From a virus, in the IMG/VR virus record IMGVR_UViG_3300046787_000675, positions 1-64,000 of that record: a DNA stretch of 64,000 nt; one strand, given 5' to 3'. Both the position numbers and the translations under genes were made by a program. The stretch's first letter is position 1; each line of letters starts with the position of its first letter. Below are positions 1 to 63,876 of this stretch, piece after piece. Below the pieces are notes generated by a model, which did not search any database, was not told where the DNA came from, and saw only the letters and a program-made list of their open reading frames with translations.

Positions 1-999
1 CTCCTGTACCAAGCGAAGAGATATAGAAGAGAAAGATGCCATAAGTTGTGGTTTACTTTTTCCGTTAGATATAGATATACTTCCGTCAGAATCAAACAGT
101 CCAGATAACAGCCCTATTTTAAACTCTCTAGGGGAACATAACCAAAAGGATGGTAAGTGTTTTTTATCTGCACCTTTACCCATTAATTTGAACAGTAGTC
201 TACTTGTATCTGTATTGCTATATACATAAGTATAAGAATCACCGTATGAGTCTGCTGTTTTTTTGCGGTGCAGATGTGCGGCTTTACCATCCTTACGTAT
301 TTTATTTAAGTCTTCCTGTATAGACTGTTCAACATTTCCATACGAAGTACTAAAACATAATTGACCTTTTACTTTACCGTTGCAAAAAGAGACCCATCCA
401 TCTCCGATTAAGAATCCAATTAAATGACCAAAGGATTTATTTAAAGGTATCTGATCTAATAAAGATGATCCTTCTCCTGGTATAGTCGTAATGCTTGCCT
501 CGTAATCCAACGCAATATTTTCTAAGTGTCTACCAGACGGGACTAACATACCTACAGAATCTTTTGGAGTTCTTCGGACTAATTCCAATGTTCCAGGAAG
601 ACACCCGTATACAGCTCGTTCATCATCATCTGTTATTATCTGATTTCTATTATGGAGATTAACCAGCCATATTTCTTTATCTCTGTGAATAGACCAGCCG
701 TGTACATCTGCTAATACTATCTTTTTAGTTTTTTCGCAATACGCAGGCACTTTTAAAAATTTCTCTGCTTCATAGAAATCAACTCCATCTTTGGATCCGA
801 GTAAACGATCTTTTCTGTAAGGGAAATCTTCTAGGTTAATACAATAATAGTTGCTACCTTTAACATAAGGTAAGTGTGTTGTAAAGCGTGCTGCCATAAG
901 TCGTGTTCTCCAATATTCTTTATTATATATATCAGATACACTATAATACTCTTCAAGATATTTACAAGGCAGATTTACAATAACATTCCCTATTTGCTT
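1..999 (-). mobile_element. Intein 2 (partial, LAGLIDADG) inserted immediately after the catalytic DFDGD; atypical N-terminus
   Basis: RNAP similarity stops at DFDGD. The downstream in-frame sequence contains LIGFLIGDGW and LLSGLFDSDGSI plus KKHLPSFWL, typical of intein endonucleases. C-terminal junction is outside the window. Confidence 0.8.
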
Positions 1000-3900
1000 G
1001 TCCCCGTCAAAGTCAGCCCCTAAAGGCTTAACAAGTGCCGGAGGAATCTGTAGAGAATGACCTTTTGTAATAACTGGCCACATTGCAATCATACTGTATT
1101 TATGCAGGGTAGGTGCGCGATTAACAATAACAGGTCTTGTTTTTATAACATCTCTTAACCCGCTCTGGGCAGCTTCTGTTTTATTAGCGACTGCTTTGGC
1201 TGCTTCTGTAGCAGGCATTCCAGCCTGGACTAAGCTTCTAACTATAAACGGCTCATACAGATCCCATGCTTTCTCCTCCGGTATTCCTACCTGATTAAGT
1301 TTAAGCGACGGGTTAAGAGATATAACAGCAAGACCGGAAGCATCGATATTAGTACCTATTACGCGTTTTTGGACAAAGCCTAATTTAGGAGATCCTTTAC
1401 CGAGAATATTGGTAAGTATACCTCCCACCTGTTTAGTCTGAAGTTCTGCCTGTACGGGGTCAGTTAATCCTACCAGAGCTCTATAATTCTTCTGTATATT
1501 TTCGCGAGCTTCATTCTTTACATCGTCCGGGAGATTAGCTGCGTCCTTATAATCCTCAATAGCCTCCATGGTAGCTTTATACATGTAGTTAGCATCATTT
1601 ACCATATTCATCCCGTTACTTTGTGTAATCGGTCTGTATTTAGGAGGTAATACAGGTATTCTGTCCATAAGGTAATCGCGAGGTGCTACACCTTGATCCT
1701 GCATAGCTTTTAGATAGCGGAACTTTTTAATAGCCAAAGGACGCGATGTTTTATTACCGTTCTTAATTAGTTCGATAGATTTAGTTATTTCATGTTCAAC
1801 ATCGATTTTATTTATCTTATCGTTAATAGCCCCATTACGAACTTCTTCATCAAATTGTTTTCTAGTCATCCCCAGTATATTTCTAATAGGATCTTCCATT
1901 ACAGGATTTACCATTGGCTCTGGCAAAGCAATATATCCCCAGCGTTTACCGTTGCCGAGAGAATCTGTAGCTACGGGGTCGAATAATCCGCCTTCTATAG
2001 GTTTAAAGTTACTCTGTGCAAATGTCGCGTTTTTAACTATCTGTCTATCGCCGGTTAGCTCCTGCGCACCTTTATTAGTTAAAGCTTGAATATTGTCGTT
2101 GTCCTTACCTTCATGAAAGTTTACTCCGGCAGCAGTAAGCATTGCCTTAAACTTATTATACACTTCAGGTGTATCCGGGACTTTAGGGGAATAGCCTAAT
2201 TTTAATTGCTTCCAGAACTCGTCGTTGCGTTGTCCTTTTATCAATTTCATATCTCTTAATACTTTTGTAGCATTGTGACCTAAGAGACCCTGCTCCTCCA
2301 TTACTCCTAAGTGCTTACTATTTGATACTAAGACGTTACCAGCAGTGTACTTATGTGTGTGATCTACAGTGAAGTCATAAACATTAATATATTCTACATC
2401 AGTTCTATGTTTATATTGTTTAATACTCCTAATAGTAGCTGGGACTTTACCAATCCTGCATATGTTATCTACCGGAACAGGTTTAATAGTTTTCTGTATT
2501 TCTTTTATAGTTTTGCGTAACCATATCTTACTACGAGGAACAGCTGTATAAGGGATATATTGTGCTATAAGCTCTACTAATTTAGAACACAGTTTAGCAG
2601 ATATATATAAAGAGTATTGTTCTGGGCGTTTATATATCTTACTTACGCACTTATCTCCGAATCTTCTTTCAAAGAACGCGATTATAAGATCTAATTCAGT
2701 CTCAGAGAACCCATGTGTAGATAATTCTCCTTGCAAGGCTATCTTTCCTTTCTTCTTAGCATGGTTTCCTATATACCCATCATCTAAAATCCAAGCACAT
2801 AGTCCTATATCGCCTATATAGTTAAGCCATTCTTCTGTAACCGTCTTCTTATCCTCTTTATAACACAGCTGTTTAAGTTCTTTTATAACCGCTTTATCGC
2901 ACATAGTCATTAGAGTACGTTTGTGTGATTTACCTTGAGGGTCTATTCCTTCGGATTTTATTTGAGACCATGTTCCATATAACCCCGCTACTACTTTTTG
3001 TTTAAAACTTATATACTCAGATTGCTTTATAGAATGCATTACCTGATATTGCTGCGATGTAAGATATGCGTCTCCAAGTAAAGACCCAGCTAAAAACTTT
3101 TTCTGATAATCTGTGGCAATTGGACCCCAACTGATAAGTTCGTCCCCCACCTTAAGCTCTCCAGCTGTTACTTTTTTACCGTTGTATAGATATACTTCAT
3201 GGTTGATTGTAGGAGTAAGAACAGATGTATGTTTAAATCTTTTACCCCCACACACTGATGCTGTTCCTTCTACTTCTATGTTAAGAATATCTGACACGCG
3301 TGCTCGATAAGTAAACCAATCCGTTATCGGTCTATAACACCAAGACTCAGTTTCCCCATCATATGTCCATACGTGTTCTGACTGCTGTTTCTCGACTATT
3401 CTACCTATCTCCCTCTCTCCATGAAGGGTTAATATTTTCTGTGTTGATGGGAAACATCCGGTCTTCCCTCCTTTCGCCGGTAAACCTTCTTCTGTGTATT
3501 TACCGGTCGAGCGCGCTTTTCCTTTGCCCTCTGCGGTATGTTGTAGTTTATAGAAGAAGCTTTTGCCTGTAAAAATTCCTGGTATTGTTTTACCTGTCCG
3601 CGGATCATATATATCTTCAACATCCTTTAAACCGTTTTTAGTTAATTCTTTCTCGGCAAACTCTACCATATCCTCGTCCAGAAATCCGGGGAGTGTGTAC
3701 GGTTTACCTGTTTTCTCTGCAATTTTTCCTAACTGCGCTTCTACTAATTGCGAGCTGTTTGTACGGGAGATAACTCCGAGAGGAGAAATTATAACGTCAA
3801 TAGGTCTTCCAGAAGAATCCCGCGGCATTTTATCGTCAGGAATAATATCGGAAATAACACCTTTACCTCCGAATCTATTAGACAGTTTATCGGCAATCAT

Positions 3901-6303
3901 CATAGGTACATTTGCCCGCGCTGCTACAGCAAAACCATTTTTAGTTTCAGTTGCATCGGTAACAACACCGGGAAACTTATGTGTCCATGTCTGGGTTATA
4001 TCAGTGCGCAGTCTTCTACCCAGGGTATTGCTTCCCTGTGTTTCATTAAAGGCGACTACCATAGGATCGCCGTAATTAAGTATACTGCCAGGCTTTACTA
4101 CGCCGTTCTCGTCGAGTTTATTTAATTGATCTTTGTTAAATTTAGATGGGAATACAGCCAGGAACTTTTTAAGTCCAGTCTGTGTATCTTCATTCTTCTC
4201 AAACTCCTCGTTATACATATGCTCTGAGGTTAATTTACTTCTAGCTGCGCTCTCCGAAATAAGTATAGAGTCTTCAAATACTTTTCCGTCGTAATTCATA
4301 TAGGCAACACGTAAATTTGTACCGAGAGCAGTTACACCTTTATCGTCTGTATAATTACTGCTTGCAAGTAGCTGTTGTTTACCTACCTTATCTCCTACTT
4401 TTACTGCAGGAATATTACGTATATAAGTCTTACGGGAAAAAGGAAATTTATTGTAGAGTTCGTGTGTTACGGATTTACCGTCGGCATATTTAACTGTTAC
4501 ACTATCGTCATCTAAAGCTGTAACAACGCCGTCGTTATCTGCTCTAAGAGCGCCCATATGTGTCCCTAGTTCCTCTTCCACGGACGACTCTCCGGATACC
4601 GTCCTTACAAGAGGAGCTTCCCGGGAAACTAGAGGGAGAGCCTGCACGGCAAATTTTGAACCCATTAAAAGGCGCATACCTTTAACTCCGCTTTTTAAAG
4701 GTACTGTATTGGCTCCATTAGAAAAGATATCGTCTCCTGTAGGAACTACAAAATCAAGATCTTTACGCGGTATAAGTTGTACGCCTTTCTCGGTTACAGC
4801 AGGGACGAATTCGTTTTTATCGTTAAGGTATTCTGATGTCGCGACGTTTTTATAGGCTGCTGTTTTGGAATCTACCCATTCTCTTTCCCCCGTACGGGCA
4901 TTAATAAATTGCGTATATAACTTATTATCTTTTCCTTTCCGTACATTCCGGGCAAGGCGCATATCGACACCTATTTTTAAGGATTCCGGACTGCGAATAA
5001 CATCAACAAAGTTCAAGTAAGAAGGCTGTACATCCCGCGCAGAAGAAGGTACACTATCGATATCTTCTAAGGCACCTTCGCCGAGACGCGTAATACGTTG
5101 GTTCTGATCGTAGTAATCTAACGGATTTATCTCTTCAATACCTTGGCTAACTCCCGAATTATTAAATAGATATGTGACATGGTCGTCTAAATGTGCCGGG
5201 GGAATAACTTCTGCGTTAGGTCCTTTGGAGCTAAGTCTCCAAAGTAATTTTTTAGAGACATTATGTTGGTCGCGACGAATTTTCTCTGTTAGGAAATCGG
5301 AGAAATCAAATACGCGTTGAAACGCCAGGGAATCCCTATTGTCATTACCTTCCTGTCCGCGAGATATACGTAACAATTTAGATGTTGCATCTGCCAACAA
5401 TTGGGGTTGGACTCTCTCGTAAGGTTTACCTAAAGTGCTTGTTGTTCCCTCTACATCCAAGTCCCCTTTAGAAAACGTGTCAATAAGATTTTGCCTTATG
5501 CGTTCTGTGTCATCTGCAGCTTCTTTATCCAGGGTAGGATCTTCCTGCTCTTTTATAAATTCTTCTTTAGGAGCTCTTCCTCCGGGATGTACAAAAGATT
5601 TAATAAAGCGGGTAGCATGCGATGTATTGCGCATTGTTTCGTTTACAGTATATATTTCTTTACCCCATCTACTCTTTAAATCCTGTGTATCATAGCCCAT
5701 TGCCTCCATAACAGGGAGAAGAGGTACTTTCTTATTAGCATATTTTAAATAAAATACCGCTGTAGATGGATCCATAAAAATACGGAAATTAGATCCTGTA
5801 CCCGGTTTAACATTTATTTGTGCCTCTACTTGCTGGTCATCTGTACGTTGGCTATAAACGCCGGGATTCAAACGGAATTGTTTATTTACAGTATATTCTG
5901 TGCCGTTTCGAATAAATGTACCTCTATCCGTCAGGAAAGGTACGTTCATAACAGTACGGGGGTTAGACTTAGACAAGATATTACCTTGTAGATCGTGTAC
6001 TTCCCATGAACCTTTAAGTTTTCTAACAAGGGATTTTCCTTTAAGAATAGCTTCTCGCTGTTCGCGAAGGTTATACCGTTCTTTAGGTTCATATTGTACG
6101 TCGGACAGTACAAGTTTATATTTATCGTTCGCAATAGGATAGGCATTAGATACAGCATCTTTAATGTTATTGTAGATAACTCCACGGAAGGAATTATAAT
6201 CGCTGTAGTCTATTAATTCATCGGGATTTACTTTTGGTAGTTCAAACAGACTATCTGCACTACCTGTAGCAGTACCTGTAGGTGCCGGGAGTATATTTGA
6301 CAT
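1..6303 (-). CDS. rpoBC: Fused beta-beta' multisubunit-type DNA-directed RNA polymerase (partial, >=2101 aa, 3' end beyond window), containing two inteins
   Basis: Hand translation from ATG at 6303; frame checked at 5160, 3456, 2340 and 1020. Beta motifs: VPFLTDRGTFIRNGTEY, SQGIEEINPL..RITRLGEG, RSPESLKIG, RLLMGSKFAVQALPL, ALGTNLRVAYMNYDGKVFEDSILISE, DKLSNRFGGKGVIS, KLQHTAEGK, KHLGVMEE. Beta' motifs: KPIEGGLFDP, IPVLPPKYRP, NRAPTLHK, GADFDGD (1020-1000). Confidence 0.95.
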   Translation of the reverse strand, partial: MSNILPAPTGTATGSADSLFELPKVNPDELIDYSDYNSFRGVIYNNIKDAVSNAYPIANDKYKLVLSDVQYEPKERYNLREQREAILKGKSLVRKLKGSWEVHDLQGNILSKSNPRTVMNVPFLTDRGTFIRNGTEYTVNKQFRLNPGVYSQRTDDQQVEAQINVKPGTGSNFRIFMDPSTAVFYLKYANKKVPLLPVMEAMGYDTQDLKSRWGKEIYTVNETMRNTSHATRFIKSFVHPGGRAPKEEFIKEQEDPTLDKEAADDTERIRQNLIDTFSKGDLDVEGTTSTLGKPYERVQPQLLADATSKLLRISRGQEGNDNRDSLAFQRVFDFSDFLTEKIRRDQHNVSKKLLWRLSSKGPNAEVIPPAHLDDHVTYLFNNSGVSQGIEEINPLDYYDQNQRITRLGEGALEDIDSVPSSARDVQPSYLNFVDVIRSPESLKIGVDMRLARNVRKGKDNKLYTQFINARTGEREWVDSKTAAYKNVATSEYLNDKNEFVPAVTEKGVQLIPRKDLDFVVPTGDDIFSNGANTVPLKSGVKGMRLLMGSKFAVQALPLVSREAPLVRTVSGESSVEEELGTHMGALRADNDGVVTALDDDSVTVKYADGKSVTHELYNKFPFSRKTYIRNIPAVKVGDKVGKQQLLASSNYTDDKGVTALGTNLRVAYMNYDGKVFEDSILISESAARSKLTSEHMYNEEFEKNEDTQTGLKKFLAVFPSKFNKDQLNKLDENGVVKPGSILNYGDPMVVAFNETQGSNTLGRRLRTDITQTWTHKFPGVVTDATETKNGFAVAARANVPMMIADKLSNRFGGKGVISDIIPDDKMPRDSSGRPIDVIISPLGVISRTNSSQLVEAQLGKIAEKTGKPYTLPGFLDEDMVEFAEKELTKNGLKDVEDIYDPRTGKTIPGIFTGKSFFYKLQHTAEGKGKARSTGKYTEEGLPAKGGKTGCFPSTQKILTLHGEREIGRIVEKQQSEHVWTYDGETESWCYRPITDWFTYRARVSDILNIEVEGTASVCGGKRFKHTSVLTPTINHEVYLYNGKKVTAGELKVGDELISWGPIATDYQKKFLAGSLLGDAYLTSQQYQVMHSIKQSEYISFKQKVVAGLYGTWSQIKSEGIDPQGKSHKRTLMTMCDKAVIKELKQLCYKEDKKTVTEEWLNYIGDIGLCAWILDDGYIGNHAKKKGKIALQGELSTHGFSETELDLIIAFFERRFGDKCVSKIYKRPEQYSLYISAKLCSKLVELIAQYIPYTAVPRSKIWLRKTIKEIQKTIKPVPVDNICRIGKVPATIRSIKQYKHRTDVEYINVYDFTVDHTHKYTAGNVLVSNSKHLGVMEEQGLLGHNATKVLRDMKLIKGQRNDEFWKQLKLGYSPKVPDTPEVYNKFKAMLTAAGVNFHEGKDNDNIQALTNKGAQELTGDRQIVKNATFAQSNFKPIEGGLFDPVATDSLGNGKRWGYIALPEPMVNPVMEDPIRNILGMTRKQFDEEVRNGAINDKINKIDVEHEITKSIELIKNGNKTSRPLAIKKFRYLKAMQDQGVAPRDYLMDRIPVLPPKYRPITQSNGMNMVNDANYMYKATMEAIEDYKDAANLPDDVKNEARENIQKNYRALVGLTDPVQAELQTKQVGGILTNILGKGSPKLGFVQKRVIGTNIDASGLAVISLNPSLKLNQVGIPEEKAWDLYEPFIVRSLVQAGMPATEAAKAVANKTEAAQSGLRDVIKTRPVIVNRAPTLHKYSMIAMWPVITKGHSLQIPPALVKPLGADFDGDKQIGNVIVNLPCKYLEEYYSVSDIYNKEYWRTRLMAARFTTHLPYVKGSNYYCINLEDFPYRKDRLLGSKDGVDFYEAEKFLKVPAYCEKTKKIVLADVHGWSIHRDKEIWLVNLHNRNQIITDDDERAVYGCLPGTLELVRRTPKDSVGMLVPSGRHLENIALDYEASITTIPGEGSSLLDQIPLNKSFGHLIGFLIGDGWVSFCNGKVKGQLCFSTSYGNVEQSIQEDLNKIRKDGKAAHLHRKKTADSYGDSYTYVYSNTDTSRLLFKLMGKGADKKHLPSFWLCSPREFKIGLLSGLFDSDGSISISNGKSKPQLMASFSSISLRLVQE
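2320..3456 (-). mobile_element. Intein 1 (379 aa, LAGLIDADG homing endonuclease) in the beta C-terminal region
   Basis: Starts CFPSTQKILT after ..KGGKTG. Block B TPTINHEV; LAGLIDADG motifs LAGSLLGDAY and AWILDDGY; ends VYDFTVDHTHKYTAGNVLVSN followed by +1 Ser. Removal restores GGKTG-SKHLGVME (cf. GGQRFGEME). Confidence 0.92.
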
Positions 6304-6306
6304 ATT

Positions 6307-7287
6307 CTACCCTTGTGCAAGTAATTTAGCGTAAGGATCTGTATCGTCGACAAGCGGCGCAGGAATCTTTTTTGCTTCTTCTCTTCTACCTAAAGGTACT
6401 ACAGATTGTTTTTTCTTTTTATCTTTTTCCAGTTCTTCGTCTATGTAACTCAGATCTGTAAATTTAGGTACGCCTTTTACCCGGGTAATATCCTGCATAA
6501 TAGTATTAAGTTCTTTAAGTCTTTGTCTATTCGGGTCTTTATTATCCATATACCCTTTAGCCGATTTATAGCTAAGTCCAGCAATACCTAATGCAGCAAG
6601 AATGTATAAAGATAAGGAGGCACGACCTATGTTAGAAGGATTAATGTAATCACCTAAACTATTCATTTCTGTTCTAGGAACATTTCCCGGTAAATAGCCG
6701 GAAATACTGTGTATAGCTTCTGCCGCTGTTTTATTGAGGCCACGTGTTCGTTTATACTCTTCATATAAAAGTTTATCGATTGTATTTTCTGTATCGGAAA
6801 TGCTATTGTTAAGCTCGTCTTTCTTATTATCATTGATAATACTGTCTGTAAGTTTCCATCCCCCGTATGTACCCGCCAGTAAAGCTGCAAGAGCTACTGC
6901 CGGATGGAAACGACTTGTTGTTTTGTCCGATAAAGTATCCCAGGCTTCTGTTGCCTGTTTCATTATAAGATCGGATGTTTCCTCTGCCCCTAATTCTTTA
7001 AGTTTTTCTTCCTTCTTAACGTCTCGTGTAGAGGCATCTAAACTAAGAATAGGGTTACGGGCATTTATATAGTTCTTCATTTCTTCTGTAGTTTTCGCTT
7101 CTACAGCCTGCTGACGAAGATGCGAAATATATTTTGCAAGAGCACCTAGGGTACCATAGCCAATAGCTAATCCTGCGCCGTGTTTTAATGCTTTAGATGT
7201 AGTTGTATCTCCAGACGATAAAGGAATATTTCCTGCAGCGAAAGGGTTGAAGAATAAATTAAAGTATTTTTGTGTGTTACTTGACAT
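6307..7287 (-). CDS. Putative virion (head-internal/ejection) protein with Gly/Ala-rich hydrophobic helices and internal KQA/KTA motifs
   Basis: 326 aa; GAGLAIGYGTLGALA, AVALAALLAGTYGGW; MKQAT, NKTAA; structural gene context. Confidence 0.55.
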   Translation of the reverse strand: MSSNTQKYFNLFFNPFAAGNIPLSSGDTTTSKALKHGAGLAIGYGTLGALAKYISHLRQQAVEAKTTEEMKNYINARNPILSLDASTRDVKKEEKLKELGAEETSDLIMKQATEAWDTLSDKTTSRFHPAVALAALLAGTYGGWKLTDSIINDNKKDELNNSISDTENTIDKLLYEEYKRTRGLNKTAAEAIHSISGYLPGNVPRTEMNSLGDYINPSNIGRASLSLYILAALGIAGLSYKSAKGYMDNKDPNRQRLKELNTIMQDITRVKGVPKFTDLSYIDEELEKDKKKKQSVVPLGRREEAKKIPAPLVDDTDPYAKLLAQG

Positions 7288-7630
7288 TTTTAGCAGTCTC
7301 CGGATCAGTATAATAAGTTTCGTACCATTCTAAATAAATACTAAAAGGAACTCTGTTCGTAAACAGCTCTTTGATTGAGACATTAATTTGTTTATGTATG
7401 GCTTTAGACATTAGCTCTTCATACTCTTTAGTGTCTTTCTCGTCTTCCATGTTAAATACTTTAGCCCGGGGAGAAGTCAAAACAAGTTTAGGTTGTTTGG
7501 ATTTTGGGTCTGATTTTTTAATGCTCATGTGACTACCTTTATATGGTCGTCCATTCCATTGTCCTTGAACAACGTCTGCAGAGTTAATAGAAAAAGGTTT
7601 ACCGTTCATAGGTATTTCGTAAGTAATCAT
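7277..7630 (-). CDS. Hypothetical protein
   Basis: 117 aa; overlaps neighbouring start/stop codons. Confidence 0.7.
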   Translation of the reverse strand: MITYEIPMNGKPFSINSADVVQGQWNGRPYKGSHMSIKKSDPKSKQPKLVLTSPRAKVFNMEDEKDTKEYEELMSKAIHKQINVSIKELFTNRVPFSIYLEWYETYYTDPETAKNVK

Positions 7631-12935: not shown

Positions 12936-14771
12936 TTATTGTACAGGCATTTGTCCTTGACGCATAGCAAGTTTACCTTGCATCGAAGCATTTTGCTCGT
13001 AATCGGCAATAATGGATTTGACCTGCGCATGTAATGTTACATTACTGTGTTTAAGGTTAATTAATGCTTCTCTTCTTTGCGGCGGAGGCATCGCAATAAT
13101 TTCCTGTGCACGTTTATCCGCTTCCATCATTAAGCTTTCAAGAGAAACATCTCCTCCTTCTGCTGATCCTGTAGGCATCGGCGGCGGAGACATAGGCGCT
13201 CCTCCCGGTGCCGGCGCAGCTGCTGCCTGTTCCTCTTGCGATAAGATCATTGCACTCGCAGGCGGTTGTTGCAGGAATTGTTTATTAGCAGATTTTGTAT
13301 CTTGTTCCTTAGCACGTTTCTCGAGGAACTCGTTCATATCATCTTCTTCTTCTGCTATTTTTTCTCTTTCTGCTTTAACATCGATACCTATACCGCGATA
13401 AGCTGTTTCTCTTGATATCTCATTTGAAGCGGCTAAAGATAGTTTAATTTCGCGTATAGCAGGATCAGCATAAAGAGACGGAGGTACAAGTTCTACTTCT
13501 ACGCTTTCCCAGTTAAGTATCTCGCCGTGCCGTTTAGCTACCCAGGTCAAAAACTCGTTAAAGGATGTCGTTAGGTGTTTCCAGGACTGCTCAAACATTT
13601 TAAACGATAAAATAGGTCCTGCAGCAGATTGTACTGTACCTTTATAAAACTCCGGAGGTACTGCCATGGAATAAAGTAGGCGCTGTTCATGGAATTCTTG
13701 GATATCTACAGGAACAATGTTTTTAGCCTCTCCCCCCAATACTTGGTATTCTAGAGGAACAGGTAACCAGTTCCAATCTGTAGGGTTCTGTCTATGCCGT
13801 TCGATTAATTCCATTATATGTTGTCCGAACTCCGCCATATCCATGACAAGCATGGCATCGACGCGACTTCCTGCAGCGGATTGCGGCGGGGCTAATACCC
13901 GGAAAGGGATAAGGTAATCTGCAAGTATACCTTCAGTATATTTATCTAGTAACGCGACAAGCATAGCTGTCTCGAACTCTGCCATAAACTTAGGTAAACC
14001 CCAGCCTTTCAATACCGGTGTCAGGGACGTTACAGGTATATCCTTCAAATGCAGTACTTGTCCTGGTGCAAACTTAAACATCTTATTTTCCAGAACAGCT
14101 TCTACTATTTCCCAGGGAGTCTGCTCAAGGAACAACAAATGTCCTTGTATAATCCCGTCGCGTAGATGATCGTATCTGCCTACATCCAGAAAGTATTCTG
14201 CTTCCCGGGACATAGGATGCTCAATGAGCTCCATGTACTGAGGCGGCCAGTAAGTTATAGACGGTTTAATAGAAGAACGCGGGAGAGGTTTATCTTCACG
14301 TATATAATTAACGGTTAAATGGCATTTAGGACATTTACCGGTAAATTTTTTATTCATCCATTTAAAGTAAGGTTCCATTTTACGGATAGGAGCACGGAAA
14401 TAACATTTAGGGCAAATTAACTGACGCGAGAACGGAACATGTATAGAGGTAAAAACATTTCCGTAGGCGATAAGATTATCCCCTACTGTCTCGAGTTCGC
14501 TATGTAGCTTATATGTCTTATACAGTGCTTTCTTATATTTATCCCGGGTACTGGAATTTAAATCGTCTCCGGTTATCTGTGCCTCTGTTATAAAGTAGCG
14601 AACTGCTTTCTTTATAGCCTGCGAGTAGATACCATGGTGCATCCATAGTTCTTCTGCCCAATCCAGTGCCTGCTTTACTGTTTTAGGGTATAGCCTGCGC
14701 GACAAGCTTTCGAAAGGAGAACTAACACCTTTATCCCAGCTGGAAAGGGTAGAAGAATTTGAAGATGACAT
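12936..14771 (-). CDS. Probable portal protein with a Zn-ribbon insertion
   Basis: 611 aa. Portal-like features: N-terminal 'IYSQAIKK', 'NLIAYGNVF', 'VLHLK..GWGLP', 'LLYSMAVPPEF', 'ISRETAYRGIGID..E', Pro/Gly/Gln-rich tail. CPKC..CPKC insert. Lies near the terminase. Confidence 0.7.
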   Translation of the reverse strand: MSSSNSSTLSSWDKGVSSPFESLSRRLYPKTVKQALDWAEELWMHHGIYSQAIKKAVRYFITEAQITGDDLNSSTRDKYKKALYKTYKLHSELETVGDNLIAYGNVFTSIHVPFSRQLICPKCYFRAPIRKMEPYFKWMNKKFTGKCPKCHLTVNYIREDKPLPRSSIKPSITYWPPQYMELIEHPMSREAEYFLDVGRYDHLRDGIIQGHLLFLEQTPWEIVEAVLENKMFKFAPGQVLHLKDIPVTSLTPVLKGWGLPKFMAEFETAMLVALLDKYTEGILADYLIPFRVLAPPQSAAGSRVDAMLVMDMAEFGQHIMELIERHRQNPTDWNWLPVPLEYQVLGGEAKNIVPVDIQEFHEQRLLYSMAVPPEFYKGTVQSAAGPILSFKMFEQSWKHLTTSFNEFLTWVAKRHGEILNWESVEVELVPPSLYADPAIREIKLSLAASNEISRETAYRGIGIDVKAEREKIAEEEDDMNEFLEKRAKEQDTKSANKQFLQQPPASAMILSQEEQAAAAPAPGGAPMSPPPMPTGSAEGGDVSLESLMMEADKRAQEIIAMPPPQRREALINLKHSNVTLHAQVKSIIADYEQNASMQGKLAMRQGQMPVQ

Positions 14772-22684: not shown

Positions 22685-24493
22685 CTATTTTGTTGTTAAG
22701 TTCTGTACGAGTTTATTTAGTTCGCCGCGCTTATACCAGAGATAACCGCAACCGAAAGTAAGAGAGTGCGATGCGTCGTCGGATTTACCCGAACGTTTTA
22801 AAATACGCAGACGCTCTATACCGGTGTCACCGGATCGAGTATCGCGATACAAGGCGAGAAAATCGTTGGTAATGGACTGCGAGGATTTGTACTCTGGTAA
22901 TAATACTTTTCCTCTCCCCAGCATAGTAAAAAAGATAATAAGCATACGCGACCGGGCTACTTGCAACCCGCGACGCATACCTTCGTCTGTAGGTTCGATT
23001 AAAGAAGCTGTAGCATCTCCGCCGTGATACATCATAGGAACTATTTTTTCTGGGGGAATGACATTTGCTTTGACAATAAGGAACTCTTGATTGAATCCCG
23101 CGCCGCCGGCATCGTGTACAAAGGCAGTAGGGTTAAAAGATTTCCATCTCTCGCCTAATACATTTACCTGTTCGAGAGGTGTCATGGATTTAGGCAGTCT
23201 TTCCATGTATAACACATCAAAAGGATCTGCGGGTACATCTGTCTCTCCTATTATAGACAATAAGGTATAGGAAGTAGCATTCTCGTTTCCGTAACCCGAC
23301 CAGTCCACGGACATAACAATCCGGCGGTATTTTTTCCGGCGCTGTAAAGCTACTGTTAGGTCGTTTAAATATGCGTCGAGAGAAACATGTTTAATTTCGT
23401 CGGGACGGATAAGCATTTCCTCGGAGTCCATAGGTATGCCTAAAATCTCGTTAACAAAGGTAGTTCGCGGGAGAGGATCTATATCCAATTCTGCGCTTCC
23501 TTTGTAAAATGCCCGGAGTACATCCCATTTACGTTTTGAGCTCCAGTGCGCGTAATGTATTACCTGCGGGACGTGTATTCCCTCGGCATAGGCAAGTCTA
23601 TCGGGGTACCGGTGTACATATTGTCCGTTTAGCGGTGCTTCGCCTAGAGGTCTATGACAATGTAAACATATTGGACCGTTTTCTCCTATCATTAACTCTA
23701 CATTATATAATCCGGATACAGAGTCAATGTCGTCGGAGGCAATACTCCATTTATTACAATGCGGACAGCGCGTCGCCCAGTATCCCTGGGAAGTTGCCCG
23801 GAATTTAACATCCAGTGTACCTGTTGTTCCTTTAGGTGTACCGGAGAAAAGTTTATCGTAATAGAGTTGCGAACCGGACATGCACTGGTCAATAATATCT
23901 GTGTAGGCAAGAACAATGTCTTGTGTCTCGTCGTAGTTTATCCCGTTTACAGAATATCCCCTTGCAGCATCCGGTCCCTTAAAGCAATGTGTGTACTGTA
24001 CTTTATTACCGTTTACAAGTTCCCTTTCCATAGCACGCTGTACACATTTCTTATCTGTAAATACACCGGGTACTGCATCTCTTAACAGCGGGGCTGCTTT
24101 ATCGACAGACAGGCGTCGGCTTTGTTCGTATCGCGGACACACCATTAAAGTATTGTACATAGTCCGCAACCTTCCCCGGAGGTAACTCGACGAGGTAAGG
24201 TTCTCAGATTTACCTACCTGGCGGGCACATCGCATTACTTTGACAGGCGCGCCGTTTAGATTGAAAAGAGGTTTAAATTGAGGGTAATATTGCAGGGAGT
24301 AAGGAGCTTTACCTAACTTACACCATGCAGCAAGCAACACATCTGTCTGTCCTGTTTGTTTAATGTATGTTGCTAATGTTTCGTAGAGGGCATTTGTTTG
24401 TTTCTTATTTATCTTGTCTCCCGAATTACTGTCTACGATATTGAATTCGGCATGTACTGTTGTAGGGGTTTCTTCGATCCTCGGCAAAAACAT
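22685..24493 (-). CDS. terL: Terminase large subunit (GpA-like, with Zn finger)
   Basis: Walker A CARQVGKS, Walker B INYDETQD, SGTPK, CPHC..CLHC, nuclease MSVDWSG, HDAGG, DDASHS. Confidence 0.9.
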   Translation of the reverse strand: MFLPRIEETPTTVHAEFNIVDSNSGDKINKKQTNALYETLATYIKQTGQTDVLLAAWCKLGKAPYSLQYYPQFKPLFNLNGAPVKVMRCARQVGKSENLTSSSYLRGRLRTMYNTLMVCPRYEQSRRLSVDKAAPLLRDAVPGVFTDKKCVQRAMERELVNGNKVQYTHCFKGPDAARGYSVNGINYDETQDIVLAYTDIIDQCMSGSQLYYDKLFSGTPKGTTGTLDVKFRATSQGYWATRCPHCNKWSIASDDIDSVSGLYNVELMIGENGPICLHCHRPLGEAPLNGQYVHRYPDRLAYAEGIHVPQVIHYAHWSSKRKWDVLRAFYKGSAELDIDPLPRTTFVNEILGIPMDSEEMLIRPDEIKHVSLDAYLNDLTVALQRRKKYRRIVMSVDWSGYGNENATSYTLLSIIGETDVPADPFDVLYMERLPKSMTPLEQVNVLGERWKSFNPTAFVHDAGGAGFNQEFLIVKANVIPPEKIVPMMYHGGDATASLIEPTDEGMRRGLQVARSRMLIIFFTMLGRGKVLLPEYKSSQSITNDFLALYRDTRSGDTGIERLRILKRSGKSDDASHSLTFGCGYLWYKRGELNKLVQNLTTK

Positions 24494-62418: not shown

Positions 62419-63876
62419 ATGAGCATCGACAATAAACAATTATTAAGCTTCCTATTTAAACAGGCGGACAATAATAATCTCCTAACTACTTTGCAGTACC
62501 AGCAACAGAGAGTAGTGGATAAGATGAATGAGCCCGCTAGAACGGGACTTGTTGTTGCTCATGGGTTGGGGTCAGGTAAAACACTGACAAGTATTGCAGC
62601 TATTAATTCTCTTAATTTACCTGCAGATGTTGTGGTTCCTGCGGCTTTAAAAGATAACTATCTTAAAGAACTTAAAAAACATCTAAAAAAAGAACTAGAT
62701 ATATCCCTCCATAGTTTACAAAATACAGCATTAAATAAAGGAGAACACTTAAATAAACAGTTATTAGTAGTTGACGAGGCACATAGACTTAGAAATCCGG
62801 GCAAAGCATCAACAGCTTTAAAGACACATACACCGTCTAAGATTATGGCATTGACCGCCTCTCCTTTCTATAATCATCCGGCGGATATAGCAAGCCCTAT
62901 AAATCTGGTTGCGGGGGAAAATATTTTACCGGAGAATGTTAAAGATTTCGAAGAAAAATACATAACATCTGTCCGTATTCCTCCTAGTTTTCTAGAACGT
63001 CTTCAAGGTATTAAAGGTTATACTGCACAAACTATAAAAGAATCCAACAAAGAAAAACTTCGTAAAATTCTAAATAAGTATGTCGATTATTATCCTGGCT
63101 CGGCCGAAGGTTTTCCGACACGAACAGATGAAACTATAAAAGTCGAAATGTCGCCGGATCAAGTCGAAACATACGATAAAGTAATGAAGGATATACCCCC
63201 AGAACTACTTTATAAAATAAGACAGAATATGCCGGCTAATGCACGCGAGACAGCAAATTTAAATGCCTTTCTTACTGCGGCCAGGCAAGTGTCAAATACT
63301 ACGGCTAAATACACGTCTGCAATAGAGCAACCCAAAATAGATACTGCTGTGTCTTATCTGATGGATCACTTGAAAGAAAATAATAAAAATAAAGCTATAG
63401 TCTATTCTAATTTCCTAGATTCCGGGATTAATCCTTACAAACAAATGCTGGATAAGAATAAAATACCTTATGGGGAATTCACCGGTGAAATGCCGCATGC
63501 TGTACGCGACCAATTAATCAGGGATTACAATAAAGATAAAATAAAAGCTCTTTTATTATCTAGTGCTGGTGGGGAAGGGTTAGATCTTAAGGGTACCAGT
63601 TTAATTCAAATACTCGAACCTCACTGGAATGATGAGAAGATAAAACAGGTAATAGGAAGAGGTATTCGCTATAAAAGTCACGAACACCTCTCCCCAGAAG
63701 AACGGAAAATAAAGATTCAAAAATTTATTTCTACCTTACCTCGTAGCGGCTTGTTACAAAAACTAAGGCTTAAGGATCCGGACACATCTACGGATGAATA
63801 TCTCCAAGAAATGTCGGATAGGAAAGAAAGATTATTGAATCAATTTAGAGAACTTCTTAGCGAGAAAATCTCTTAA
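62419..63876 (+). CDS. SF2 (SNF2-like) helicase with N-terminal KQA motif
   Basis: HGLGSGKT, VVDEAH, LTASP, GGEGLDLKG, QVIGRGIRYKSH. Confidence 0.9.
   Translation: MSIDNKQLLSFLFKQADNNNLLTTLQYQQQRVVDKMNEPARTGLVVAHGLGSGKTLTSIAAINSLNLPADVVVPAALKDNYLKELKKHLKKELDISLHSLQNTALNKGEHLNKQLLVVDEAHRLRNPGKASTALKTHTPSKIMALTASPFYNHPADIASPINLVAGENILPENVKDFEEKYITSVRIPPSFLERLQGIKGYTAQTIKESNKEKLRKILNKYVDYYPGSAEGFPTRTDETIKVEMSPDQVETYDKVMKDIPPELLYKIRQNMPANARETANLNAFLTAARQVSNTTAKYTSAIEQPKIDTAVSYLMDHLKENNKNKAIVYSNFLDSGINPYKQMLDKNKIPYGEFTGEMPHAVRDQLIRDYNKDKIKALLLSSAGGEGLDLKGTSLIQILEPHWNDEKIKQVIGRGIRYKSHEHLSPEERKIKIQKFISTLPRSGLLQKLRLKDPDTSTDEYLQEMSDRKERLLNQFRELLSEKIS

Follow-up and report, generated by a model that had tools for sequence, protein, structure and literature searches.

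A bacterial-type phage RNA polymerase with beta joined to part of beta' and the rest of beta' encoded apart

Organization of the polymerase locus

The DNA considered here (hereafter the window) comprises bases 1–64,000 of a single IMG/VR contig of 160,705 bp (IMGVR_UViG_3300046787_000675), and its first bases carry most of a gene for an RNA polymerase of bacterial type. In this gene the beta subunit is continuous with the N-terminal part of beta' (beta::beta'N), and the remainder of beta' (beta'C) is the product of a separate gene of the same contig. The enzyme in this genome is made of two chains, beta::beta'N and beta'C, not of a single one. On the minus strand, a listing of open reading frames (ORFs) that includes open ends gives a stop-free frame from an ATG at window position 6303 to window base 1. 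The first and last 166 bases of the contig (window 1–166 and genome 160540–160705) are identical save for one C/T mismatch at position 39, and the polymerase gene reads without a break over the join of the two ends; the contig is a circular or circularly permuted genome. Once joined round the circle, the frame spans 2,380 codons, with its end at genome 159700. An earlier note on this DNA had described the polymerase as hidden from the ORF track, as is the case: the gene is missing from the default ORF list because its frame runs off the window edge. The features are listed in Table 1.

The order of Pfam domains along the frame is Rpb2 domain 6 (PF00562, E 6e-47, well over the cut-off), LAGLIDADG_2, Rpb1 domain 2 (PF00623, E 9e-16) and then another LAGLIDADG domain, while Rpb2 domains 3 and 2 (PF04565 and PF04561) are weak matches under their cut-offs. 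Collinearity of the beta part with Thermus beta is significant at E 2e-63. The C-terminal helix of beta, PEVYNKFKAMLTAAGVNF, at 2116–2169, can be aligned to the end of bacterial beta; the sequence over the join is AGVNFHEGKDNDNIQALTNKG, and the next residues that can be aligned correspond to bacterial beta' from about residue 20, so that the linker has about five residues. Further on, residues 1481–1768 match residues 173–464 of Escherichia coli beta' almost one-to-one in a search of solved structures. The AlphaFold model of a 440-amino acid (aa) piece around the junction has a mean pLDDT of 78.5 and, compared by Foldseek with bacterial beta' and cyanobacterial gamma subunits, a TM-score of about 0.7; structure prediction was one of the checks that the earlier note had proposed. 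The same note had claimed that beta passes into beta' in one frame with neither a stop nor a long linker, that beta without intein 1 has about 1,020 aa, and that DFDGD lies about 370 aa into beta'. All of this was borne out: the landmarks PEVYNKFKAMLTAAGVNF, AGVNFHEGKDNDNIQALTNKG and DFDGD stand where they had been placed, the intein-free beta has 1,021 aa and DFDGD is found 369 aa past the junction.

What did not hold for this genome is the description of the enzyme as single-chain. The window cuts the gene inside intein 2; beyond that intein only 90 residues of beta' remain before the stop, which would give a spliced chain 1 of 1,479 aa ending about 90 aa past DFDGD. The remaining 607 aa of beta' are encoded 3.5 kb downstream of beta::beta'N, on the minus strand, in a frame of 993 aa (genome 153264–156245) with Rpb1 domain 5 (PF04998, E 3e-14) and an intein of the Hint/LAGLIDADG_3 type. 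In the spliced beta'C of 607 aa, the motifs of the bridge helix, the second zinc site and the trigger loop are readable. Using Salmonella rpoB/rpoC as the ruler in an alignment of 53 rows, chain 1 ends at about the equivalent of E. coli beta' residue 569 and chain 2 starts at about 570; on the same scale DFDGD ends at 464 and intein 3 is at about 783. The two polymerase genes are separated by four small genes (genome 156254–159046), most of which show no conservation across the relatives examined. One of them (157635–158270) encodes a Nudix hydrolase (Pfam E 1e-10) that could have RNA 5' ends as its target.

Table 1. Features of the polymerase locus and its surroundings (window positions unless marked as genome)
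Feature	Position	Strand	Remarks
beta::beta'N precursor gene, window part 2,101 of 2,380 codons	1..6303	minus	runs over the circular contig junction
beta N-terminal extein, residues 1-949, Rpb2 domains 2, 3, 6	3457..6303	minus	Pfam; collinear with Thermus beta
Intein 1, C950-N1328, 379 aa, +1 Ser, LAGLIDADG_2	2320..3456	minus	in beta motif GGKTG/SKxLGxME (slash, insertion point)
beta C-terminal extein, residues 1329-1400, last helix PEVYNKFKAMLTAAGVNF	2104..2319	minus	alignment
Fusion junction HEGKDNDNI, about 5 linker residues, no stop	2089..2115	minus	alignment; kept across the family
beta' N-terminal part to DFDGD, residues 1401-1768	1000..2103	minus	alignment, structure matches
Mg-binding motif DFDGD (GADFDGD)	1000..1014	minus	read in the sequence; KQIGNVIVNL next
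Intein 2, K1769-N2290, 522 aa, +1 Thr, LAGLIDADG_3	1..999 (first 333 residues) + genome 159970-160539	minus	directly after DFDGD
Intein 3, C197-N582, +1 Ser, Hint + LAGLIDADG_3	within the 993-aa beta'C frame	minus	interrupts the bridge helix
Portal gene, Arash gp204 homologue	13329..14720	minus	E 4e-57; upstream, same transcription direction
Large terminase (TerL), Arash gp1 homologue	22751..24337	minus	E 5e-25
Major capsid protein (MCP) homologue	genome 144214-145101	same as polymerase	tblastn

Regarding size, beta and beta' sum to 2,086 aa, compared with 2,276–2,787 aa in the bacteria sampled. The N-terminal zinc-binding domain of beta' (CxC...CxxC) is missing, with about 32 residues gone, and in the alignment the same domain is absent from every row displayed of the clade of fused enzymes described below, being kept in bacteria and in the phages Carin-5 and YerA41. 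The real losses are this domain and lineage-specific inserts. The word 'minimised', used in the earlier note, is too strong: the enzyme is smaller than cellular ones and has lost the zinc-binding domain, but beta is collinear with that of Thermus and, at 1,021 aa, exceeds the 952-aa beta of a bacterium from the candidate phyla radiation. 'Streamlined' is a fair label, whereas 'minimised' overstates the reduction.

Three inteins, whose bounds were set by alignment with intein-free homologues, interrupt the two frames. Each of them has Hint blocks and an endonuclease, lies in a conserved motif and is not present in orthologues. Inteins 1 and 3 start with Cys1 and end Asn/Ser; intein 2 is of a different kind and is considered below together with the activity of the enzyme.

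Distribution of the fused layout

The joined layout is common among phages. At least 120 clusters match the 440-aa junction piece with 40–67% identity in a word-indexed search, almost all of them over the whole piece, and in all 120 clusters listed PF00562 and PF00623 are found in one protein. An exhaustive HMMER search gave 1,057 representatives at E <= 1e-30, with the junction in all of the best 150. The position of the cut has been kept as well, as nearly all complete homologues end 85–94 aa past DFDGD, and beta'C sequence is found in none of the 239 closest fused proteins. In turn, beta'C stands alone in at least 120 clusters, mostly with about 605–626 aa and often on contigs that bear the polymerase. 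Because they are conserved in so many clusters, fusion and split are family traits and not artefacts.

This conservation also decides on the most prosaic alternative, in which the fusion or the split would come from an assembly error, a frameshift or faulty gene calling. The enzyme described here does come from a single metagenomic contig, classed by IMG/VR as linear and 84% complete. Nevertheless, a stop or frameshift at the junction, which the earlier note had named as the case against a fusion, is not found: the join is intact in the clusters and the best 150 representatives just mentioned and in 80 IMG/VR loci that were examined and cover it. More than 100 independent clusters share both the junction and the stop position, as do cultured phages with peptides for both proteins, and four genes separate the two polymerase genes here. 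Conservation effectively refutes an artefact, the chance of which is negligible.

The 80 IMG/VR loci fall mainly into two layouts. In about 30 of them the split is the same as here, with beta'C 1–4 kb downstream. In about 45, with 29–34% identity, beta, beta'N and beta'C are in one frame, that is, these are true single chains, and the idea of a single-chain enzyme fits these more distant relatives. Without inteins the single-chain frames have about 1,985–2,160 aa, and frames of 2,021–2,067 aa contain Rpb2 domains 3 and 6 and Rpb1 domains 1–5 according to Pfam.

A search of prokaryotes (one genome per species, 185,579 genomes) returned a single match to the junction, on a phage-like contig of 204 kb. 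The other matches were ordinary rpoC genes, aligned only over residues ~164–440 of the junction query with 27–33% identity. An origin from a host chromosomal rpoBC was ruled out, since bacterial rpoC loci match only the beta' part. Together with the homologues of TerL, portal and MCP, this distribution agrees with the earlier view of a phage enzyme of bacterial type. The single junction match (L098:3175-11793) belongs to a metagenome-assembled genome named 'Bacteroidales bacterium', in which the contig (204,271 bp) is of phage size and encodes a true single chain of 2,873 aa with two inteins, one after DFDGD and the other in the trigger loop. The binning with Bacteroidales is a possible hint to the host of that branch.

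Phylogenetic position

A tree of concatenated beta and beta' (53 rows, 2,023 columns) was inferred with IQ-TREE under LG+G4, with ultrafast bootstrap and SH-aLRT supports; the model is site-homogeneous, many rows show compositional heterogeneity, and the sampling consists of bacterial and phage rows, with no archaeal or mReC ones. All fused enzymes form one clade (100/100); the 15 bacteria (100/100) lie outside it, and so do Carin-5 and YerA41, phages with unfused subunits (100/100). The comparison with cellular and phage polymerases that had been proposed as a check places the fused clade apart from the bacteria sampled, with no nesting among their rpoBC. The 13 split enzymes, including the present one and those of Arash and Vibrio phage D69, are likewise one clade (100/97, and recovered in every one of the 200 bootstrap trees), which lies within the single-chain forms, with a support of 94/96 for the single-chain sister. 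In addition, two single-chain rows branch below the remainder of the fused clade, which groups at 96/97. Provided that the root is placed outside this clade, the nesting implies that the complete fusion is ancestral and that the cut in beta' arose once. The beta' of YerA41 is also cut, at about E. coli residue 636, and because the site differs that split is independent.

Transcription partners

The genome contains only one polymerase set; a second set like that of phiKZ was looked for and none was found. Among the partners of a bacterial core, alpha gave no match in the genome (PF01193, PF01000), and omega (PF01192) gave only a sub-threshold match (11.9 bits, E 0.04; window 7277–7630, minus strand), which is probably due to chance. 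The 117-aa protein concerned, encoded two genes upstream of the polymerase, was rejected as omega: it has no Pfam support and is conserved in the five nearest loci only. The host may supply alpha and omega subunits as partners.

The result is different for sigma, and the earlier suggestion of searching for alpha- and sigma-like partners was fruitful in this half only. A protein of 241 aa (genome 119347–120072) is by homology a sigma-70-family factor, matching gp10 of Arash (E 2e-14, tblastn) and phrog_351 (E 1e-10). The profile of its family matches solved sigma factors, including a nearly full-length sigma-F (E 7e-8 to 1e-5), and several homologues have Pfam sigma regions 3 and 4 and are encoded on polymerase-bearing contigs. 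The region of beta' that in E. coli holds the sigma-binding clamp helices (within 173–464) is present, and the model has a helical hairpin there.

Genomic context

Since PHROG and Pfam were mostly blank for the flanking genes, synteny was read from tblastn searches with the proteins of Salmonella phage Arash, the closest relative in culture. Both genomes have in common the order portal, polymerase, beta'C, gp218-like, gp222-like and MCP, and in all relatives examined the polymerase genes are inside the head module, in line with the place at the end of a virion-protein cluster that had been assigned to them earlier.

Two neighbouring observations were made in this comparison. The homologue of the Arash structural protein gp222 (864 aa, genome 147211–149805) has an intein of the Hint/LAGLIDADG type, and counting this one the genome has at least four inteins. 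At window 62491–63858 (plus strand), a helicase shares 41% identity with Arash gp217 (E 4e-93), the best-conserved among the Arash proteins compared with this genome. In Arash, gp217 adjoins beta'C and is abundant in virions (PMC10585845).

A proposal for the enzyme

Taken together, these data make it probable that this phage has its own and only transcription enzyme, a reduced two-chain core of bacterial type that is spliced, guided by a phage sigma factor and probably packed in the virion. Chain 1 would consist of beta joined to beta' up to the equivalent of E. coli residue 569 and would hold the clamp helices that bind sigma together with both catalytic double-psi barrels. Chain 2 would contribute what is left of beta', including the bridge helix, the trigger loop and the second zinc site. 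Both chains are expected to be made as precursors, from which we infer that the three inteins are removed by protein splicing before the enzyme works. The spliced chains of 1,479 and 607 aa would then assemble with neither alpha nor omega, the beta–beta' tether standing in for the alpha-dimer assembly platform. In bacteria, natural and synthetic fusions of beta and beta' are functional (10.1101/2021.11.05.467461; PMC1557499). Promoter recognition would most likely be given by the 241-aa factor, and the enzyme would probably be packed in the head and injected in order to start early transcription. Head packaging is probable because the genes lie between portal and capsid and because both polymerase chains and the sigma factor of Arash are abundant in virions; by this analogy, packaging and injection are the most likely role.

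Several observations weigh against this proposal. The first group concerns intein 2, which lacks an N-terminal nucleophile (it begins with Lys1), has TDDD at block B, where TxxH is the usual motif, and ends Ser-Asn/Thr, with an atypical penultimate residue. If it failed to splice, the enzyme would be dead, and with three inteins in catalytic motifs the polymerase of this genome might be regarded as inactive or decaying. We consider this very improbable, as the frames are intact across 7.1 and 3.0 kb, the exteins retain every catalytic motif and have 60–68% identity with homologues that lack inteins, and this is the sole polymerase set in the genome. Moreover, at least 17 homologues have an intein at the same site, and they start with D, E, Q, K, A, S or T, conserve the +1 Thr and frequently have an xQIGxV motif; among those whose ends were read, the inteins of P0045, P0048 and the L098 ORF end Asp/Thr, not Asn/Thr. 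This suggests a working lineage, and from its sequence intein 2 looks like a member of a distinct, non-canonical group of inteins.

The other adverse points concern sigma and the virion. The 241-aa factor could redirect the host polymerase instead, as some phages are known to pair their own sigma factors with the host enzyme (PMC7824862). Neither was a repeated phage-specific promoter motif found in a quick and insensitive count of intergenic 9-mers, which gave AT-rich words only. In addition, other head-module proteins of this phage share an N-terminal tag, proposed as a capsid-loading signal, which is in neither polymerase chain. Finally, the virion data for Arash are open to another reading, as its authors caution that virion preparations may contain abundant late proteins as contaminants (PMC10585845). 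Contamination, the missing tag and the use of phage sigma factors with host enzymes would accommodate an active polymerase that is not carried by the virion, but made after infection for middle or late genes. The early genes would then be read by the host enzyme, which the phage sigma factor might redirect. Such a scheme appears unlikely. In Arash virions Gp206, the homologue of beta::beta'N, has the largest number of spectra of all proteins (3,516) and 100% sequence coverage, and Gp216 and the sigma factor Gp10 have likewise been detected (PMC10585845). The embedding in the head module also recurs in all relatives examined, and no separate early enzyme is apparent, since there is one polymerase set only.

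The proposal of a two-chain enzyme packed in the virion may be extended, more tentatively, to the fused clade as a whole. Its members could be self-contained machines of bacterial type that are free of alpha and omega, made of one or two chains plus a phage sigma factor, loaded in the capsid and injected in an N4-like manner, in which the tether replaces the alpha-dimer platform and, with both catalytic barrels tethered, beta'C can be supplied separately.

Significance

Cellular-type RNA polymerases usually have at least five chains on an alpha-dimer scaffold. In the lineage described here, which comprises about a thousand clusters at 50% identity, the catalytic core consists of a single chain or of two and dispenses with alpha, omega and the zinc domain of beta', while sigma is kept. 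It offers a natural minimal system for probing the role of accessory subunits, a compact enzyme that may serve structural work and biotechnology, and a new data point on the independence of phages from host transcription. The split subclade also records a subunit boundary that has moved, with the old limit between beta and beta' erased and a new one set inside beta'. As far as the sequences indicate, the contributions of this window would be a split form that descends from single-chain ancestors, the absence of the zinc domain throughout the clade, and catalytic motifs interrupted by three inteins, one apparently non-canonical. If the model is true, a fusion that came first and was followed by a cut at another site would show that a covalent tether can stand in for the alpha-dimer platform, and an N4-like strategy would be carried out with a cellular-type enzyme. 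The cultured members Arash and Vibrio phage D69 allow direct tests of these predictions.

Comparison with known RNA polymerases

In a literature search for bacterial-type beta–beta' fusions in phages, neither of the two layouts was found; the fusions that appeared were gp66 of crAss-like phages, those of Helicobacter and the synthetic one of E. coli. The rpoB–rpoC fusions of Helicobacter and Wolinella and the synthetic E. coli fusion also join the C-terminus of beta to the N-terminus of beta' and show that a tether is compatible with function, although the Helicobacter and Wolinella fusions are full-size chromosomal enzymes. Bacterial fusions retain the zinc-binding domain as well as alpha and omega, and have an unsplit beta'.

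The polymerases of the phiKZ/AR9 type are also phage relatives of beta and beta' without alpha or omega. The division of their beta' comes after the catalytic barrel, and one form of the enzyme is carried in the virion (PMC7824862, PMC13282480). They differ in that beta is also split, giving four to five chains, in the presence of two paralogous sets, in the absence of a sigma-70 homologue and in being far more diverged. Reviews of the polymerases of jumbo phages cover only such multiply divided enzymes, which have no sigma. The present genome has an intact, fused beta, a single set and a sigma factor.

Closer in general features are the mReC phages, Carin-5 (a Cobetia phage) and YerA41 (a Yersinia phage), tailed phages of about 100–300 kb with compact beta and beta' of bacterial type (beta ~920–1,030 aa). 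In Carin-5 the sigma gene even adjoins the polymerase genes. In all of these, however, beta and beta' are separate genes; in Carin-5 and YerA41 the order is beta' then beta, the zinc-binding domain is kept, and both lie outside the fused clade. The mReC tables give beta and beta' as distinct ORFs throughout (PMC7481178, Supplementary Data 2), and membership in the group required beta and beta' to be distinct proteins, each no shorter than 800 aa, and the beta' protein to contain NADxDGD (Weinheimer and Aylward 2020, PMC7481178). Here the protein that bears DFDGD is a fusion with beta, and a selection that needs separate subunits would miss the fused layout.

Within the fused clade, the single-chain polymerases of uncultured phages of 150–200 kb (loci such as L041, L057 and L064) share with this enzyme the junction, the loss of the zinc domain and a similar total size; in them beta' is continuous, whereas here it is cut at the equivalent of E. 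coli residues 569/570. The nearest cultured counterparts are the enzymes of Arash and of the Vibrio phages D69, D148 and D181, which have the same layout of beta::beta'N and separate beta'C and belong to the same split clade, with an identity of only 26–31%. In Arash, Gp206 (beta::beta'N, 1,525 aa) and Gp216 (beta'C, 606 aa) are encoded at the same position between portal and capsid, and the sigma factor is homologous. Its polymerase genes differ in having no inteins and in the genes that lie between them. The Arash paper and the GenBank record name the two proteins plain beta and beta', and the fusion and the split go unremarked (PMC10585845). The enzyme of this window shares with that of Arash the in-frame junction, an end 85–94 aa past DFDGD, a beta'C of about 600 aa, the location in the head module and a gp10-like sigma factor.

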